Positions 3,750-32,706 of a stretch of DNA of 64,000 nt are shown piece by piece. The number at the start of each line of letters is the position of its first letter. Position 1 is the first letter of the stretch. A program made the translations under genes and the position numbers. The stretch covers positions 10,446 to 74,445 of the forward strand of contig JBAZOQ010000002.1 of assembly GCA_041648595.1 (NCBI GenBank). The letters run 5' to 3'. The stretch is from Minisyncoccota bacterium. Its GTDB lineage: Bacteria; Patescibacteriota; Minisyncoccia; Phycocordibacterales; UBA9973. The notes under the pieces were generated by a model that saw nothing but the letters and a program-made list of their open reading frames with translations, had not been told where the DNA came from and made no database searches.

Positions 3750-4964
3750 TTAATCAAAGTAATTTTTAAGGCGAGCTATTTTTTCATGCTGACGAAGTTT
3801 TTCGTGAACTTTTGCCTCAATCTGACGAATACGTTCACGCGTCACTCCAAACTCTTCCCCTACTCTCTCTAAGGTGTGCTGTATACCATCAACAAGACCA
3901 TAACGCATTTCAAGAATTTTACATTCTTTTGGATTAAGTTCATTCAAAACTTCACGAATCTGGTCAGATAAAATTCTTCTAGAAGATTCTTGGTCCGGAC
4001 GTAAAATTTTATCATCAGGAATAAAATTTTCAAGAGTTGATTTATCATCATCATCTCCTACTGGTTGTTCAAGAGAAATAGTTTCTTGACTAATATTTTC
4101 AATCACATGAATTTTTTCAATAGGAATACCCATTTCTGTAGCGATCTCTTCTGCTAATGGTTCACGTCCTAGGTCTTGACTGAGTCTTCTATAAACTTGT
4201 TTATATTTTGAAATAGTTTCTACCATATGCACTGGAATACGAATAGTTCTACTTTGATCAGCAAGCGCTCGAGTAATAGATTGACGAATCCACCAAGTTG
4301 CATAAGTTGAAAATTTATATCCTTTAGTCCAATCAAATTTTTCAACAGCTTTAAATAACCCCAGATTTCCCTCTTGAATTAAATCTAAAAGACTTAAATT
4401 AGCGCTTCTTCCTACATATTTTTTAGCAATAGAAACCACAAGGCGTAAATTTGCTCGTGCTAATAAATTTTTTGCTTCTTCGTCACCTAATTCTATACGT
4501 TTAGCAAGATCCTTTTCATCACCAGCACGAATAAGTGAATACTGTCCTATTTCTTTTAAATACATTTGAATAGAATCATGTATTGTAGATTTATTTAAAT
4601 CTTTATCAGAAATATCATTATCAAGATTCAGTAAATTTCCACCCTCTAGTACATCTATCCCAGCAACTGAAAATTTTTCATAAAGTTCATCCAAAAAGAA
4701 AATATTGTTTTCAATATCAGGAAAAGTTTTTAATATTTCGTCATAAGTAACAAATCCTCTCTTGCGTCCTTTTTCTATAAGATCACTCGAAACCTTTGCA
4801 AACCCTTCAGCCCTTTTTTCTGCTGCAGTTGTTTTTTTTGTAACCTTTTTTCCTATTTTTTTTATTTTTTTAGTAATTTTTACTTTTTTTATCTTTTTTA
4901 CAATCTTTCTAAGAGGTTTTTTACTAAACTTTTTTATTTTTTTATTTTTTATTTTTTTCTTCAT
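3750..4964 (-). CDS. rpoD: RNA polymerase sigma-70 factor RpoD
   Basis: The product carries [39 protein letters not shown] (regions 2-4) and has a Lys-rich N-terminus. The start is set to the ATG of MKKKIKNKK; the ORF track extends to 5009 through the repeat element. Confidence 0.9.
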
Positions 4965-26943: not shown

Positions 26944-27905
26944 TTATAACTTTTTACTACTCAATATTTCAATCGCGCGAGTTATAAGTGGAATAATATC
27001 ATTATAAATACGAAGTTCTGGAATTTCAGAGAGTTTAAACCAACGAGCATTATCTAATCCACCAGAATCTTCAAGTTTTAATTCACAATATTTACTTTCT
27101 GCTAAAAAATACGTAACTTTTTTTAATGTCTTCCCTTTTTCTGGATGAGAAGCTACATATTCATTTTCACCAAGTTTTTCTTTTATAATAATATCAAGTC
27201 CAATTTCTTCCTTTATTTTTCTTATTGTGCCATCTTCTACGCTTTCATTCTCAATTTCTGGATTATCTCCTACTTTACCTTTTGACAAAGTCCAATAACC
27301 AAAAACATCATGCACTAATGCAAATAAAGTATCTTTATTCCCGCCAGAGGAACGGGCAGGCTTTTGAGCATAAATCAATGCTCCACCCAACTTTTCAACT
27401 GGTAATTTTGTAATATCTACTGGCTCATCGTTTTTTTTCTTTTTACTTATTTGTTCTTTTCCAGGTTCACCAATCTCTTTATAAACTGCACCAAGAACAC
27501 CATTAACAAATTTACTAGAATTTTCTCCACCAAAAGTTTTCGCTAATTCTATAGCTTCATTTATGGCAACCTTAGGAGGTACTTGATTCCTATCACCAAA
27601 AAGAAGTTCAGTCAACCCAATTCTTAAAATATTTCTATCAACAATAGATATCTTATCAAGTGGCCAATCCGGTGCAGCTTTTTTTATTATCTCATCAACT
27701 ACTGTAACTTTTCTTAAAATTTCTTCTACTAATGTAGCCACAAAAACATCATCCTCAAGGCCAGGAGCAAATTCTTTTAAATTTCTGTTTAAAGCTTCTT
27801 TTGTTTTTTCGTCAGTCCAAACATTATTCTGTCCTCCAGTAGTCATAAAATCCCACTCAAAAAGCGTTTGGAGAACTATTGATCTTGAAAGGTGCCTATT
27901 TGCCA
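26944..27905 (-). CDS. nusB: NusB-like antitermination domain fused to a C-terminal Nudix-hydrolase-like domain
   Basis: N-terminal ~150 aa are NusB-like. The C-terminus has [15 protein letters not shown]...RKIKEEIGL, resembling the Nudix box. The start is taken at the ATG of MANRHL. Confidence 0.6.
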
Positions 27906-27920
27906 TAAAAATTACCAATT

Positions 27921-27979: not shown

Positions 27980-28207
27980 TTACTTTGATTCTGCTTTCTT
28001 TGCTTTTTCTTTCTTCTGCTTCTTTTCCATTTTTTTAACTAAATCCAACACCTTCATCCCGCGATAGAAACCGCAAGATGAGCAAACTGTATGCTGTTTT
28101 TTAAGAGTTTTACAATTTTCACATTTAGTAAAACCCGTACTCACCAATGCATGATGTGAACGTCTGTTTGCTGTATGTGATTTTGTATGTCTCATTCGTA
28201 CTACCAT
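27980..28207 (-). CDS. rpmF: 50S ribosomal protein L32
   Basis: Small basic protein with a CxxC...CxxC zinc ribbon and an RRSH N-terminal block. Confidence 0.8.
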   Translation of the reverse strand: MVVRMRHTKSHTANRRSHHALVSTGFTKCENCKTLKKQHTVCSSCGFYRGMKVLDLVKKMEKKQKKEKAKKAESK

Positions 28208-28288
28208 AATGTATTCTATACTAGCATATTAAAGATGAAAAGCAAAATTATACATTTAAGTAAACAAACTATTACACTGAAATACAAC

Positions 28289-28324
28289 TGTCTACTATCT
28301 TTTCATATGTAAAGATAGTAGACA
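28289..28324. repeat. Palindrome TGTCTACTATCTTT-TCATATGT-AAAGATAGTAGACA overlapping the RT stop codon
   Basis: 14-bp perfect stem. Related copy at 61944-61979. Confidence 0.7.
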
Positions 28325-29341
28325 CTAATACAATAGTGTTTAAGAACACCCATATAAGAAGCCATAATTTGTTGAAATTTATCTTTATTTATTTTCCCAA
28401 TAGCTAATTCTTTTCGTGCTTTTTTAAGTTTTTTAAAAATTCTTTTCTTGGTTCTCGTTCTTAATACAATTATGTTAGGTAAAATAACATAACCCACAAA
28501 ATCTATTCCTCGACTTAATTTTCTTATATAAACTTTATCTGGATGTAATTCAAGTTTTAAGTTTTGTTTTAAAAAAATTTCTATTTCTTTTTTGTATAAT
28601 GTAAGCAAATTTTCACTTTCAAAAATTAAGACAAAATCATCAGCATATCTAAAATAATGTTTAATTTTAAGTTTATGTTTTATAAATTGATCCAATTCAT
28701 TTAAATAAATATTTGCAAAAAGTTGGCTAGTTACATTACCCAAAGGAAGTCCAACATTTGGAAACTTCTCAAAACTTTTTAAAATTTTATTAATTAACCA
28801 TAATGTATCTTCGTCTGAAATCTTTTTTTTAATAAGCTCAAATAATATAATATGGTCTATATTTTCAAAAAATTTTCTAATATCACACTTTAAAACAAAA
28901 ACTGGCTGTTTCCAATTTTTACTTTCTTTACGTAAAGCTACAAAAAGTTTTTTTGATGCTTTGTGTGTCCCTTTTTTAAGTCGTGAAGAATATGAATGAA
29001 ATATAAAATGTTTATCAAAAATTTGATATAAAACTCTAAAAACTGCTTGATTTAACACTCTATCTCTAACCACCGCTTTATGTATATGTCTGCGTTTTGG
29101 ATCATACACAAAAAATGCTTGATACTTTGTAGGTTTATAAATTTTACTTATTAGTTCCTTATGTAAAGAAAATAAATTATTTTCTAAATTAAACTCAAAA
29201 TCTGCAACATCTATTTTTTTAGTTTTGCACTTTTTAAATTCCTTCCAAGCTTGAAGTAAATTTGATAAACTTACTACATTATGGAAAAAACTTTGAACAG
29301 CCCCCCCCCCCGACGCAATTTTTGATGTCCTTGTCGTTCAT
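28303..29341 (-). CDS. Diversity-generating retroelement reverse transcriptase (Brt-like); reading frame interrupted at a C11 homopolymer (29301-29311)
   Basis: LPLGNVTSQLFANIYL matches the DGR-RT hallmark (I/L)GxxxSQ motif 4. FRYADDFVLIF is the YADD active site. FFVYDPKRRHIHKAVVRDRVLNQAV and SYSSRLKKGTHKA align block by block with Bordetella Brt. The frame is open upstream of the annotated GTG back to 29337, but the ATG (MNDKDIKNCVGGG) is in another frame. Fusion needs C10 rather than C11. Confidence 0.85.
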
Positions 29342-29344
29342 AAG

Positions 29345-29674
29345 ATGAGAAAATTATATATCTATGTGTATATGATTGGCAACAAGTTACCAAAACGAGA
29401 TAAATTGGGAATTCATAGTTATATTGAAAAAGAATTTTTACAAACTTTTTCAACTTTAATAAACGCTTCACTTGAGCCAAAATCAGAAAAAATAACCTCA
29501 GTCAAAAAAGCGAGACTTCAAATAGAGACATTAAAACAATTATTCAGAACAGAATATGAAACAAAGATTATTACAGAAAAAGTATATTTAAATATAGAAT
29601 TAAAATTGCAAGAAATTTCTAAAATGACAAATGGTTGGTTAAAATATTTACAAACACAAAATCCGCCCAATTAA
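29345..29674 (+). CDS. Avd-like accessory variability determinant (four-helix-bundle protein, TIGR02436-like)
   Basis: 109 aa, basic. LPKRDKLGIHSYIEKEFLQTFSTLINASLE and C-terminal ISKMTNGWLKYL resemble the FPK-E-G...NIAEG and ML-GLIKSL blocks of bAvd-family proteins. Divergent from the RT. Confidence 0.55.
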   Translation: MRKLYIYVYMIGNKLPKRDKLGIHSYIEKEFLQTFSTLINASLEPKSEKITSVKKARLQIETLKQLFRTEYETKIITEKVYLNIELKLQEISKMTNGWLKYLQTQNPPN

Positions 29675-29694
29675 AATTGAAAGCGGATTTAAGT

Positions 29695-29817
29695 GAGAAA
29701 CTTCTGAACGGATACCATAACTAGAGTTCGAATTGTCCAGATTGTACCAATTCACATTGAACTTGTCGTTGTTCCAATTCGCGTTCGGAACATTACCATC
29801 CGAATTGCGAGAACCGT
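29695..29817 (-). other. DGR template repeat (TR)
   Basis: 123 bp aligned to VR at 30077-30198 with 15 core mismatches. Every one is a T in the plus strand of TR, i.e. an A in the minus coding sense. Non-A differences occur only at the IMH-like end (CTTC vs TTGC). Confidence 0.85.
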
Positions 29818-30017
29818 CCTATTACAAAAAATCATCCATTCCACCGACAAATCAATTACTTAATTTTCTGTGTTATCTCACAGTCGTGAGCAATATGTAG
29901 CATCATTACAAAATTGTATTATCTATGCTCAATTTTTTGCAAGCAGTTTCTTAATATGGCAAACTGTTATCTTAGTTTTAAGATCAGTTTATCAGCCAAA
30001 TATATTTTAACATAAAA

Positions 30018-30052
30018 AAATTGCGTTAGGTTTTTTAAAAACCTAACGCAAT
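30018..30052 (-). terminator. Perfect 15-bp hairpin TTGCGTTAGGTTTTT-TA-AAAAACCTAACGCAA downstream of the DGR target gene; terminator and/or DGR homing hairpin
   Basis: Followed by TTTTTTTATG in the minus-strand sense. Lies about 25 bp beyond the IMH end of VR. Confidence 0.6.
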
Positions 30053-30072
30053 AAAGATAAAAAGAAAAAAGA

Positions 30073-30807
30073 TTAAAGAGAAATTGCTGAACGGATACCA
30101 GAACTAGAGTTCGAACCGTCCAGATAGTACCAACTCACAAGGAACCCGACGCTGTCCCAATACGCGTTCGGAACATAACCATCCGAATAGCGAGAACCGG
30201 AACAGAAAGTAACACCTTTGATATCTAAATGATTTCCCGTTTCCGAGAAATACTTGATTTCAAGAATGATACGTTCCAAAACAGTGATTCCAATTTTCAT
30301 ATCAGCGTCAGCCTGCCTTGTTGATTTACCGAGATATTCAATGTCAGGTTCAATATCATCACGAACCCAAACAGCGTAATTGTCCGAAGACGTCCGTATA
30401 TTTGTTGGAATTGTCTTGTCTAAATCATCACTATAACGCCATGATTTAAAAATAGCTTTACAACAATCAAAGGCTTTGTTCATCGTCATACCTTTTGCGA
30501 TAAACAATAGACGCCAATTACCGTCAGGACGATTAGGAATGATAACTCTGCTGAAATCTACATCCCAATTGAAATGAGTTTTGTAAAATTTCTGCCATTC
30601 TTCACGAATATTGGCATACTCATCTACAATTGAGAAAACTTCTCGAAGCTTTTTTTTCAGCTCATTTTTGTGTCCGAGCCAATAATCAATTTGCACCTCA
30701 CTAAGTAATGTCGTTAAAAAGTCAACGATAAAACCAGCGAGAGAGCCAATTTTTTGCATTATTCCGCTAATGCTGAGCGTTTCAGATTTTGTCCCATGTT
30801 TTTTCAT
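30073..30807 (-). CDS. DGR target (variable) protein with a C-terminal C-type-lectin/FGE-like VR region; no signal peptide
   Basis: The C-terminal 40 aa (GVTFCSGSRYSDGYVPNAYWDSVGFLVSWYYLDGSNSSSGIRS) are encoded by VR. Adenine-containing TR codons map onto these positions. Confidence 0.8.
   Translation of the reverse strand: MKKHGTKSETLSISGIMQKIGSLAGFIVDFLTTLLSEVQIDYWLGHKNELKKKLREVFSIVDEYANIREEWQKFYKTHFNWDVDFSRVIIPNRPDGNWRLLFIAKGMTMNKAFDCCKAIFKSWRYSDDLDKTIPTNIRTSSDNYAVWVRDDIEPDIEYLGKSTRQADADMKIGITVLERIILEIKYFSETGNHLDIKGVTFCSGSRYSDGYVPNAYWDSVGFLVSWYYLDGSNSSSGIRSAISL
30077..30198 (-). other. DGR variable repeat (VR) at the 3' end of the target gene
   Basis: See the TR entry. It ends 2-5 nt before the target stop codon. 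Confidence 0.85.
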
Positions 30808-30954
30808 GGTATGTTCTCCTTTATTACAATGAACTAATTTTTGAGATCTTTGGATACGGCACTCATTATTCCGTTTCGTATATTATATCATATCCTAGAA
30901 AAAAAGCAAGTCTTTTTATTACCTATAAAATGCTATATAATTAAAGGACTTTTT

Positions 30955-32706
30955 ATGGAAAATAATATTGATAAATTACACAACTTAAGACATTCCTTAG
31001 CTCATCTTTTGGCTGCAGCTGTTTTGGAGATATACCCTGATACCAAAAATACAATCGGTCCTTCTATAGAAGATGGCTTTTATTATGATTTTGAATTCTC
31101 GTCTCCTATCTCTGATAAGAACTTACCAAAAATAGAAAAGAAAATGAAAGATATTTTGAAATCTTGGAAAAATTTTGAGAATGAGGAAAAAACTAAAAAG
31201 GAAGCAGAAAATCATTTCAAAAATAATGAATACAAAATAGAACTTATAAACGAAATTAATGAAAAAGGAGAAAAAATAACTTTCTATACTTGTGGAGCTT
31301 TTACAGATCTTTGCCGTGGTGGACATTTAGAAAATCCGAGTAAAGAAATAAGTCCAGATTCATTTAAATTAGATCGTGTAGCTGGGGCATATTGGCGTGG
31401 AGATGAAAAAAATAAAATGCTTACCCGCATTTACGGATTGGCTTTCGAAACAAAAGAAGAATTGGAGGCTTATGTGATACAACGAGAGGAGGCTCTAAAA
31501 AGAGACCATAAAAAAATCGGTAAGGAATTAGGATTATTTGCTTTTAGCCCTCTTGTTGGTTCAGGTCTTCCTCTATTTCTGCCAAAAGGTGAAATAATTT
31601 TTTACGAGCTGGAAAAATATATGCGTGAAGAAAAAGAAAAGCTTCATTATAAATTTGTCCATATACCCCATATTGCCAAAACAGAGCTTTACAAAAAAAG
31701 CGGTCACTTAGGAAAATATGATGCAATGATGCCAATTATGCAAGATGCTGAAGGCGATCAATATGTTATGAAAGCAATGAATTGTCCTCACCATTTTGAA
31801 ATCTATAATGCAGAACCCCATAGCTATCGTGATCTTCCTTATAGATTAGCCGAAACTACAACCGTTTATCGTAATGAGAAAAGCGGAGAATTGAGTGGGT
31901 TAGTTCGAGTCAAAGCTTTAACGCAAGATGACACACATCACTTTATTCGTCATGATCAAATCCAACAAGAAATTGAAATGATTCTAGGGTTAATGGATAA
32001 AGTTTATAAAAATTTTGGTTTCAAGGATTACACTGTGCAAATATCCATTCGCGATCCAAAAAATCCTGATAAATATTTCGGTGGGGATGAACTTTGGAAA
32101 GAATCTGAGAAAATACTTATCGACTCTGTAAAGAAATGGAACCGTCCTTACATAGTTACAGAAGGAGAAGCAGCTTTCTATGGGCCTAAGATAGATATAA
32201 TGGTGAAAGATTCGATTGGTCGTAATTGGCAATTGACTACGGTTCAACTTGATTTTAATCAACCAGAAAATTTTCATATGCGATATATAGGAGAAGATGG
32301 AAAAGAACATGCTCCTGCTGTGTTACATGTTGCAGTATTAGGTTCTATTGAACGTTTTATGGGAGTATTGATTGAACACTATGCCGGCGCCTTCCCTCTC
32401 TGGCTCTCACCAGTACAGGTGAAAGTAATCCCTGTGCGCACCAGCCACAACGAATACGCCAAAAAAGTTTTTGAATTATTGAAAGAGAACAACATCCGCG
32501 CGAAATTTGACGATGCCGAGGAAAACCTCGGAGGAAAAGTCCGCAATGCGAAAAACAATAAGATTCCTTATTGGATTGTTATAGGTGACAAGGAAATAGA
32601 AGCGAAAAAGGTTACCCTCGAATCTCGCGACAAAGGCCAGCTTGGACAGATATCAAAAGAAGAATTATTGAAAAAACTTTTGGAGGAAATAAAGAATAAG
32701 AAATAA
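30955..32706 (+). CDS. thrS: Threonyl-tRNA synthetase
   Basis: HSLAHLL editing-domain motif and class II aaRS motifs. The ORF track starts at an upstream TTG (30841); ATG at 30955 (MENNIDKL) preferred. Confidence 0.9.
   Translation: MENNIDKLHNLRHSLAHLLAAAVLEIYPDTKNTIGPSIEDGFYYDFEFSSPISDKNLPKIEKKMKDILKSWKNFENEEKTKKEAENHFKNNEYKIELINEINEKGEKITFYTCGAFTDLCRGGHLENPSKEISPDSFKLDRVAGAYWRGDEKNKMLTRIYGLAFETKEELEAYVIQREEALKRDHKKIGKELGLFAFSPLVGSGLPLFLPKGEIIFYELEKYMREEKEKLHYKFVHIPHIAKTELYKKSGHLGKYDAMMPIMQDAEGDQYVMKAMNCPHHFEIYNAEPHSYRDLPYRLAETTTVYRNEKSGELSGLVRVKALTQDDTHHFIRHDQIQQEIEMILGLMDKVYKNFGFKDYTVQISIRDPKNPDKYFGGDELWKESEKILIDSVKKWNRPYIVTEGEAAFYGPKIDIMVKDSIGRNWQLTTVQLDFNQPENFHMRYIGEDGKEHAPAVLHVAVLGSIERFMGVLIEHYAGAFPLWLSPVQVKVIPVRTSHNEYAKKVFELLKENNIRAKFDDAEENLGGKVRNAKNNKIPYWIVIGDKEIEAKKVTLESRDKGQLGQISKEELLKKLLEEIKNKK

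Follow-up and report, generated by a model that had tools for sequence, protein, structure and literature searches.

A probable diversity-generating retroelement of CPR layout with a poly-G tract at the 5′ end of its reverse transcriptase gene

The locus described here lies on the chromosome, with thrS and rpmF on either side, in a 64-kb stretch of DNA (the window). Its genes and repeats follow the order target gene with variable repeat (VR), template repeat (TR), inverted avd and reverse transcriptase (RT). A first-pass annotation of the window had proposed a CPR lineage, which agrees with the assignment of the proteins by NCBI to a Candidatus Paceibacterota MAG. It had also described a complete diversity-generating retroelement (DGR). 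All of the parts were found, but the RT ORF is interrupted at a run of 11 G residues (G11) and has lost about 20 conserved C-terminal residues. Wu et al. 2018 (PMC5758913) reported architecture B3, TR-(avd)-RT, in 90% of CPR DGRs. The window element is a member of these CPR/Patescibacteria B3 DGRs (clade 2 of Roux et al. 2021, PMC8144416), with no essential difference: it shares with them the gene order, the inverted avd, the host group, a target lacking any recognisable domain beyond the CLec-type VR region, and a chromosomal location amid housekeeping genes. The DGR itself is thus ordinary, of a kind common in ultra-small CPR bacteria; it joins a known group and adds little to it. We consider it highly probable that the locus is a real chromosomal DGR of CPR-specific layout in Candidatus Paceibacterota, including the mechanism and the reading of the G tract that are proposed below.

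TR (29695–29816, minus strand) and VR (30078–30199, minus strand), the latter spanning the final ~40 codons of the target gene, were aligned by an independent repeat search over 122 nt without gaps, at an offset of 383 and with 86% identity. The repeat pair had been annotated before at 29695–29817 and 30077–30198; the pair is real, and the coordinates were 1 nt off. Recounting the mismatches gave the same 15 core differences (29718–29806), each at a T on the plus strand of TR, which is an A in the minus-strand coding sense, and confirmed substitutions to C, G and T (sense-strand tally A>G 7, A>T 6, A>C 2). T occupies 32 of the 113 core positions, and the hypergeometric probability of all 15 core mismatches falling on T is about 3e-10. 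TR adenines account for 16/17 mismatches overall and for 15/15 in the core. The TR 3′ end had been described as IMH-like, differing from VR at non-A positions (CTTC versus TTGC). This holds for position 29701 (C/T on the plus strand, G/A in the sense strand), which is the sole non-A difference, but position 29703 (T/G) is an A site in the sense strand. AGTTTC is common at the TR and VR 3′ ends of related elements, which show 0–2 non-A differences, and comparison of these ends revealed no clear IMH/IMH* block across the element family. The design of TR is typical of DGRs, with 11 AAY codons and with 32 of its 34 A residues in codon positions 1 and 2. No additional VR was found within the 64 kb.

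Among related loci, a TR/VR pair was present in 27/27, and 76–100% of the mismatches were at TR adenines in 26 of them, the exception being locus L053 (9/17). In the sister strains L005 and L006, TR together with a 10-nt flank on each side is identical (142/142), whereas identity over the surrounding 3.2 kb drops to ~95%. The VR of L005 has 20 differing sites, of which 19 are at TR adenines, and the VR of L080 is likewise diversified. Because VR differs at A sites while TR is identical between the sisters, VR has turned over by mutagenic homing that acted after the strain split. The exact target protein of the window, including its VR, occurs in at least 5 contigs from at least 4 samples, which fits an element that is inactive or rarely active in this strain.

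CPR bacteria are rich in DGRs of this layout, and the targets are domain-poor CLec proteins. In the window, the target gene (30073–30807, minus strand) encodes a protein of 244 aa, with a helical bundle towards the N-terminus and, at the C-terminus, a C-type-lectin/FGE-like domain bearing the VR. The CLec/FGE-like nature of the variable C-terminus had been suggested from sequence, and structure prediction now models it as a C-type-lectin/FGE fold, with the VR at the 3′ end of the ORF. Searches with the target gave no sequence-level match to any solved chain, nor to any Pfam family. It also shows no sequence match to TvpA (2Y3C) and TaqVP (5VF4), DGR variable proteins in the FGE-sulfatase/CLec superfamily, and the N-terminal helical bundle (residues 13–79) is peculiar to the family of the window target. 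The first-pass annotation saw no signal peptide and took the target to be probably intracellular; such a location is no more than possible, as residues 20–38 form a conserved, moderately hydrophobic helix (Kyte–Doolittle 1.54, just below 1.6). The 90% cluster of the target has a single member, and the VR variant P0002 came from a homology search.

The accessory gene avd (29345–29674, plus strand, 109 aa) is on the strand opposite to the target, TR and RT, and this inverted position is kept in every related cassette. Its earlier description as Avd-like is in line with profile searches, which matched Pfam bAvd (PF22296) by a marginal pass (40.7 bits against a cut-off of 40) and NCBIfam DivGenRetAVD (NF033474) with 50 bits and E 2.7e-13, under the 80-bit cut-off. 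An exact look-up of the 109-aa Avd returned no record, because gene callers take the start of a 100-aa form, which was matched.

The RT body (28303–29337, minus strand) is an open frame that holds the whole DGR-RT core, running from ...AVQSFFHNVVSLSNLLQAW as far as the stop codon. Its first canonical start is a GTG at 29109, giving a 268-aa ORF (28303–29109) that comprises the 3′ three quarters of the gene. Both motifs named in the earlier call of a Brt-like RT, LGNVTSQ and YADD, are present in this ORF, and the SQ-type motif 4 (LPLGNVTSQLFANIY) aligned with IPIGSLTSQLFANVY of bRT. The best solved relative was 8ub7_A (E 6e-38), which we take, from the aligned chain sequence, to be Bordetella bRT; group II RTs gave 5e-24 and retron-type RTs 1e-20. 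Pfam RVT_1 was matched with E 2e-21. By these sequence comparisons the RT falls in the DGR clade, with bRT a nearer relative than the RTs of group II introns or retrons.

An RT of a group II intron or retron, next to a 122-nt repeat that is an ordinary duplication, would make the locus something other than a DGR. The top NCBIfam model is indeed group_II_RT_mat (143 bits), and NCBI labels the protein 'reverse transcriptase/maturase family'. However, the group II model TIGR04416 scored 143 against a 300-bit cut-off and the retron model NF038233 scored 64 against 235, bRT leads the solved relatives by 14 orders of magnitude, and Rfam finds no group II intron or retron RNA in 28000–31000 (E<=1). 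The adenine-only mismatches, with the probability given above and repeated in 27 relatives, are unlike a duplication. We regard this explanation as extremely improbable.

Upstream of the RT body is a short leader (29312–29341, minus strand; MNDKDIKNCV), with its ATG at 29341, 3 nt from the divergent avd ATG. The G11 homopolymer (29301–29311, minus strand; C11 on the plus strand) starts 30 nt past this ATG, which is thereby out of frame with the RT body; the two would be in register at G10 or G13. The window therefore has no intact RT ORF, the ATG being out of frame and no canonical start in the RT frame occurring before 29109. An ATT at 29320–29322 with an upstream AAGGA is a possible non-canonical start in the RT frame. 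The best consensus match in the region to a sigma-70-like promoter (TTGCCA-18-TATAAT, 11/12; 29353–29382, minus strand) is a candidate promoter. It is antisense to the 5′ codons of avd, with the RT ATG 12 nt downstream, and relatives show a TATAAT-like box there. Sister strain L005 carries G10 and an intact 355-aa RT, with the MNDKDIKNCV leader fused in frame to the RT, and relatives repeat the leader as M-[NQD]-x-[RK]-[DN]-[IV]-K. The tract is G9 in L080 and G11 in L077. The flanks of the G9, G10 and G11 alleles are identical, and only G10 is in frame.

The window RT also differs at its C-terminus, where a ~62-nt deletion, by comparison with a sister strain, has led to replacement of the last ~20 conserved residues (HC[KR]xxKIK...). 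Because of this deletion, the RT frame now enters a 14-bp hairpin over the stop codon (28289–28324, minus strand), identified by folding and as an inverted repeat, which is terminator-like but without a clean T-run. Lacking these residues, the RT may be decaying rather than switched off: a once active DGR would now have an RT pseudogene, made by the frameshift and the C-terminal deletion, and a frozen VR. The G11 tract with its out-of-frame RT start recurs in four assemblies of this strain, that of the window included, and this repetition favours decay, as does the recurrence of one VR and target in several samples. Against decay, the RT body has 344 codons without an internal stop and a dN/dS of 0.12–0.21 against relatives. 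TR, avd and the structured RNA described below are intact, and identical or near-identical to those of the sister strain with an intact RT. A single-base slip suffices to restore the frame. With a single non-A site among the 17 TR/VR mismatches, VR shows no drift after its last homing. Across the RT bodies compared, dN/dS was 0.11–0.21 even in pairs with both alleles out of frame, and the RT body is, on this measure, under purifying selection. We think decay unlikely, although it deserves serious consideration.

The G11 run is the sole G/C run of at least 7 nt in the 64 kb, the next longest being 6 nt, and GGG makes up 9% of Gly codons. A G8–G12 run occurs at the same RT 5′ site in 27 related loci, with RT identity down to 43%. 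An ATG in frame upstream of the tract is present in 15 loci and absent from 12. The leader peptides preceding the Gly run differ among genomes in a manner consistent with all three reading frames. Some lineages (L022, P0144, P0145 and P0222) have an interrupted tract together with an uninterrupted ORF. A Gly run is found at the tract site in 90/120 of the closest RT clusters, and the more distant DGR RTs L070 and L071 begin right at the tract site without a Gly run. Tract lengths were read from assemblies and could be in error in single cases. Homopolymer lengths in Illumina or Nanopore MAGs may carry one-base errors, several contigs end at or near the G tract, and some of the MAGs among the MFD bins were presumably built from error-prone long reads.

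The tract could accordingly have no switching role and simply encode a conserved Gly-Gly-Gly at the RT N-terminus, which is read at the tract site in most full-length predictions, the out-of-frame lengths being sequencing or assembly errors. The rarity of GGG codons and of other G/C runs argues otherwise, since a pure 8–12 nt run is nevertheless kept in the 27 loci. G11 was recovered in four independent assemblies, random consensus errors are an unlikely source of leaders that fit all three upstream frames, and the RTs of L070 and L071 start at this site with no Gly run. This explanation appears improbable to us.

Bypass at the level of expression has also to be weighed, in which RNA-polymerase slippage or ribosomal frameshifting would give a low, constant amount of RT at any tract length, with no heritable switch in the DNA. 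Long homopolymers are known slippage sites, as established for A/T runs; slippage at G/C runs is less documented. The frame relation between the RT and the leader ATG was 0 in 9 loci, +1 in 18 and +2 in 4. Because it is not conserved, a strict programmed +1 frameshift was ruled out as the sole explanation. The varying frame relation, together with purifying selection on the RT body everywhere, would suit a bypass that works at any length. However, programmed recoding sites normally hold one frame relation, which the tract does not, and the tract length differs between close strains at the level of DNA. We hold such a bypass to be improbable too. The tract lies 34–44 nt upstream of the divergent avd start, and could therefore affect avd expression instead of that of the RT.

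Most likely the G run is prone to slippage and renders RT production, and with it hypermutation, stochastic or switchable, the window strain having been caught out of frame. It resembles the poly-G/C contingency loci of Campylobacter, Neisseria and Haemophilus, which undergo slipped-strand phase variation. Shared features are a G8–G12 run a few codons past the start in an AT-rich genome otherwise without such runs, length variation between close strains, a mixture of in-frame and out-of-frame alleles, and occasional interrupted tracts. The known contingency genes mostly concern surface structures or restriction–modification enzymes, whereas the gated gene here would be a mutator RT, so that variation itself would be switched, and the length variation seen here is only that between assemblies of different strains.

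Uncontrolled RT activity should be costly, and regulation is where the poly-G tract could matter: it is conserved at the nucleotide level (at RT identities as low as 43%), it differs in length between sister strains, and it separates the start codon from the selected RT body. We hypothesize that DGR hypermutation is phase-variable or slippage-throttled. Targeted hypermutation would then be bet-hedged, with the variable protein held constant in most cells and diversified in a shifting minority. In the literature searched, no paper connected DGRs to homopolymers, phase variation, frameshifts or poly-G. The poly-G tract and the RNA 5′ of TR are unmentioned in Wu et al. 2018 (PMC5758913) and Roux et al. 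2021 (PMC8144416), in each of which the word 'homopolymer' occurs 0 times.

That RNA (29822–29997, minus strand) lies directly 5′ of TR, and was delineated by alignment and covariation. It comprises helices H1 (29995–29997/29958–29960), H2 (29980–29989/29962–29973), H3 (29931–29942/29822–29833) and H4 (29860–29868/29846–29855), and its invariant motifs include GAAACUGCUUGC and UCGGUGA. RNAalifold, applied to 24 aligned loci, gave 36 pairs, with compensatory changes in 26. In this alignment 94.9% of cells were paired, compared with 37–51% when the partners were slid, and there were 175 double-change cells, compared with 30–58; the observed values were reached by 0/500 shuffles. Covariation thus supports a structured RNA domain 5′ of TR. 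No match was found by cmscan with Rfam 15 in 28000–31000 on both strands (E<=1), including to the RT-1 to RT-19 motifs and RT-10 among them. Pairing of GAAACU in the 5′ domain with AGUUUC at the TR 3′ end was unsupported, as L036, L042, L053 and L056 have AGUCUC with GAAACU unchanged; a compensatory change for this pairing is present in L018.

The structured RNA opens with a conserved GGC, and 6 nt before it is a −10-like hexamer, TAAAAT (30004–30009, minus strand), a putative promoter of the TR RNA; relatives have TATAAT-like hexamers in the same alignment column. A promoter-like site at 29942->29913 falls within helix H3 of the conserved RNA and was for that reason discarded as the TR promoter. 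Right after TR is a hairpin with a U-rich tail (29655–29693, minus strand), which overlaps the 3′ end of the convergent avd and is the putative 3′ end of the TR transcript. RNAfold showed a hairpin with a U-rich tail, beginning 2–12 nt after TR, in 27/27 loci, although the sequences differ. The TR transcript would accordingly start at about 29998 and end at about 29655.

We propose that TR has a transcript to itself, a small RNA of ~350 nt that consists of the structured 5′ domain, the 122-nt TR and the hairpin with its U-tail and is made from a promoter at about 30004–30009. The RT and Avd would copy TR into cDNA, misincorporating opposite adenines, and the cDNA would replace VR. Up to 11 AAY-type codons would be rewritten in this way, on the ligand-binding face of the C-type-lectin-fold domain at the C-terminus of the 244-aa protein. 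In the window, G11 would shift the RT frame 30 nt past the start, and a one-base slip to G10 would restore the RT. Extended to the CPR DGR clade, this proposal has two parts: the G8–G12 tract as a heritable, reversible RT switch or slippage throttle, and the template as a separate small RNA with a protein-binding or priming domain 5′ of TR. We put forward the two together tentatively, as plausible but somewhat less than evenly favoured.

To our knowledge, the Bordetella DGR is the only DGR system studied biochemically. In the DGR of Bordetella phage BPP-1 (mtd-avd-TR-brt), avd is not inverted between TR and RT as it is in the window. BPP-1 has a functional spacer RNA (Rfam RT-10 motif) 3′ of TR, whereas the window has its conserved structured RNA 5′ of TR, with no match to an Rfam RT motif. 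By analogy, the 5′ domain may fill the role of the Bordetella 3′ spacer RNA, which suggests that an RNA scaffold can sit on the opposite side of TR. Unlike the phage-borne BPP-1 element, that of the window has a cellular host, and its RT has a leader and a G tract; it also lacks a clear IMH/IMH* block, and the hairpin 26 nt past its VR is AT-rich and resembles a terminator. The 5′ RNA domain, together with the terminator-like hairpins that bound the TR unit on either side, would define an RNA of ~350 nt for reconstituting a CPR DGR.

The perfect 15-bp hairpin previously placed ~25 bp past VR was found at 30020–30052, 26 nt after VR, with a 3-nt loop (dG −20.3, z −6.8), and is followed by T7 (30013–30052 in all, minus strand). 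Most of the 27 related loci have a hairpin with a T tail 25–55 nt after VR, with unrelated sequences. The T-run, and the retention of form despite varying position and sequence, fit an ordinary intrinsic terminator, and this is likely what the hairpin provides for the target gene. The T7 after this hairpin, the structured RNA in the VR–TR spacer, the strand of avd and the limitation of the RT ORF to the 3′ three quarters of its gene are additions to the first-pass annotation.

A direct repeat of 122 nt with an offset of 383 (29695-29816 and 30078-30199) was detected in the window without prior knowledge of the element. It corresponds to the template repeat (TR) and variable repeat (VR) of the diversity-generating retroelement (DGR) described in the first-pass annotation, whose coordinates were one base off. 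Base-by-base comparison of TR with VR revealed 15 mismatches in 29718-29806, and all 15 fall on a plus-strand T of the upstream copy, which reads as A on the coding strand of the target ORF (30073-30807, minus, ending in VR), confirming the adenine-only divergence claimed for the core. T occupies 32 of the 113 core positions, which gives a probability of 3e-10 that all 15 mismatches sit on T. On the sense strand, seven A sites of TR became G in VR, six became T and two became C. Two extra mismatches are present at the 3' end, at 29703 and 29701. Both had been thought to lie at non-A positions; this is correct for 29701, the sole non-A difference, where TR has G and VR has A, but 29703 is an A site. 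TR contains 11 AAY codons; of 34 adenines in total, 32 occupy codon positions 1 or 2. No further VR-like copy was found within the 64-kb window.

The ORF at 28303-29109 matched RVT_1, and its NCBIfam scores were far under the cut-offs for both group II (143 versus 300) and retron (64 versus 235) reverse transcriptases (RTs). The full-length RT orthologue of a sister strain matched the PDB chain 8ub7_A (328-aa reverse transcriptase; E 6e-38), the aligned sequence of which we take to be Bordetella phage bRT. Matches to group II RTs were weaker (5e-24), and the SQ motif aligned as LPLGNVTSQLFANIY versus IPIGSLTSQLFANVY, in agreement with the proposed Brt-like RT. The 109-aa ORF at 29345-29674 narrowly passed the Pfam bAvd cut-off (40.7 versus 40) and matched NCBIfam DivGenRetAVD at E 2.7e-13, under the family cut-off, which bears out its description as an Avd-like gene. 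It lies on the plus strand, inverted relative to the target, VR, TR and RT on the minus strand, a point on which the annotation required correction. The CLec/FGE-like fold proposed for the variable C-terminus of the target is confirmed by modelling. The target may be intracellular, as proposed; its hydrophobicity peaked at 1.54 over 19 residues.

The reading of the locus as a DGR is thus right at its core. The order TR-(avd)-RT is architecture B3, reported for 90% of DGRs of CPR bacteria (Wu et al. 2018, PMC5758913), and the element, ordinary by itself, belongs to this known group. Its proteins are recorded at NCBI under a Candidatus Paceibacterota MAG, and smc, rnc, a nusB-NUDIX fusion, rpmF and thrS lie around it, which places it on the chromosome. 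The fusion gene (26944-27918, minus) is separated from the DGR by one gene. Its 324-aa product joins NusB to a NUDIX hydrolase domain, with Pfam families taken from the listing of its orthologue, and has no relation to the DGR finding.

The sister strain (contigs L005 and L006) shares the same synteny and ~95% identity over 3.2 kb with the window, and carries a target variant (P0002) that is 95% identical. TR and its flanks are identical at 142/142 positions, while VR differs at 20 positions, 19 of them at TR adenines. A third strain (L080) has another, distinct A-diversified VR. A TR/VR pair is present in 27/27 related cassettes retrieved from CPR genomes, with 76-100% of mismatches at TR adenines in 26 of them, the exception being L053 (9/17). 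The A-site VR differences beside an identical TR, together with the A-biased pairs in relatives, show that mutagenic homing has been active in this lineage after the strains diverged. The exact target protein of the window recurs in at least 5 contigs from several samples, and this recurrence gives no sign of current homing in the window's own strain.

The hairpin downstream of VR is present as annotated (30020-30052, minus; 15 bp, 3-nt loop), but its T7 tail fits a terminator. A T-tailed hairpin follows VR by 25-55 nt in most relatives, with unrelated sequences; because hairpin and T tail are kept despite this, a terminator is the best reading, though a role in homing may exist. Downstream of this hairpin lie a -10-like box and then ~175 nt conserved family-wide, comprising a structured RNA domain directly 5' of TR (29822-29997, minus) with four covariation-supported helices. 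In an alignment of 24 loci, the consensus structure has 36 pairs, 26 with compensatory changes. Paired cells amounted to 94.9%, versus 37-51% with slid partners, and double-change cells to 175, versus 30-58; the observed values were reached by 0/500 shuffles. The domain contains the invariant motifs GAAACUGCUUGC and UCGGUGA. It had no Rfam match, including the RT-1 to RT-19 motifs; among these, RT-10 is the TR-RT spacer of the Bordetella DGR.

Directly after TR, a hairpin with a U-rich tail (29655-29693, minus) overlaps the convergent 3' end of avd, and a hairpin of this kind occupies the same position in all 27 loci. The region's best promoter-like site (29382->29353, minus; 11/12) immediately precedes the RT ATG. 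These features suggest that TR is transcribed on its own as a short RNA; the minus strand would then carry two units, a ~350-nt TR RNA and an mRNA for the RT, and avd would run convergently towards the former and divergently from the latter. The RT leader ATG (29341, minus) and the avd ATG (29345, plus) stand back to back, 3 nt apart, so that each promoter must lie inside the 5' coding region of the other gene. The invariant, single-stranded GAAACU of the 5' RNA domain (29943-29948) complements the conserved AGUUUC at the TR 3' end (29698-29703), the expected start of cDNA synthesis. L018 shows a compensatory change in this pairing, and four loci have AGUCUC without compensation.

All parts of the DGR are present, but the first-pass annotation's term "complete" does not extend to an intact RT ORF. 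From 29337 onwards the RT frame is open; it encodes the conserved DGR-RT N-terminus (AVQSFFHNVVSLSNLLQAW...) and contains no ATG, GTG or TTG upstream of 29109. The leader ATG opens MNDKDIKNCV and enters a run of 11 G (G11; 29301-29311, minus), between it and the RT body, in a non-RT frame. In L005 the run is G10 (4610-4619), and the same ATG yields an intact 355-aa RT. At the 3' end, ~62 nt are absent from the window (~28305-28335) relative to L005:5586-5647. The family C-terminus SY.G.L.HC[KR]..KIK..I... is cut after KH, the last ~20 conserved residues are replaced, and the frame now extends into a downstream hairpin (28289-28324). Decay of the RT in the window's strain, where both lesions lie, ranked fourth among our readings of the frame mismatch. 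RT-body dN/dS is 0.11-0.21, including pairs with both alleles out of frame, and the RT has therefore been kept functional. The mismatch must then be transient, bypassed or mis-assembled. An error in the sequenced tract length was ranked third; G11 recurs in three further assemblies of this strain.

G11 is the only G/C run of at least 7 nt in the window (runs by exact length: 4 nt, 101; 5 nt, 15; 6 nt, 3; 7-10 nt, 0; 11 nt, 1), in which 9% of Gly codons are GGG. A G8-G12 run occupies the same position in 27 related loci, following TR by 339-393 nt and standing 28-45 nt away from the start of avd, with RT identity as low as 43%, and is nearly always the sole such run within 8-9 kb. Among the 120 closest RT clusters, 90 have a Gly run 10-14 residues ahead of the conserved FHN..S..NL motif, ~20 are N-terminally truncated predictions, and a few have an interrupted tract. 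The leaders ahead of the Gly run vary in a manner that fits all three reading frames (MNNRDIKNCV-, MSKIAS-, ...QKLRR-). The more distant DGR RTs L070 and L071 start exactly at the would-be tract site, which marks leader and tract as an addition specific to this clade.

Tract alleles with identical flanks comprise G9 (L080), G10 (L005) and G11 (the window and a further close allele, L077), of which only G10 is in frame. Over all loci, an in-frame ATG of some kind is present in 15 and absent from 12, and relative to the leader ATG 9 loci have an offset of 0, 18 of +1 and 4 of +2. We rank slipped-strand phase variation of the RT gene at the tract first, and slippage during expression, which would bypass the mismatch, second. 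No mention of such a tract was found in the searchable DGR literature, which covered Wu et al. 2018 and Roux et al. 2021 (PMC8144416). Tract and 5' RNA domain are both clade-wide, no description of either was found in that literature, and they merit follow-up.

Some alleles keep the leader and an unbroken RT ORF with an interrupted tract (L022:1380-1445; proteins P0144, P0145, P0213, P0222 and P0235), for example GGCCACGGA, or NDGDT at the protein level; these look like alleles that have lost the capacity for slippage. L001:7497-7530 (= L073/L076), from the same strain, is identical to the window over 3 kb except at the tract, where a ~35-nt patch has G7 + TCTTCTTATAG in place of G11 + CTGTTCAAAG (29270-29311), plus one further substitution. 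The patch is similar to alleles of other strains, and could reflect local recombination, a hypervariable patch beside the tract, or chimeric assembly. Four contigs end in avd or exactly at the tract (L002, ~29542; L003, 29462; L004, 29301; L006, ~29600), and these independent assembly breaks hint at a drop in coverage or quality, or at heterogeneity there. On the avd strand, the tract is a C11 run that precedes the avd start by 34-44 nt, and could affect avd expression too.
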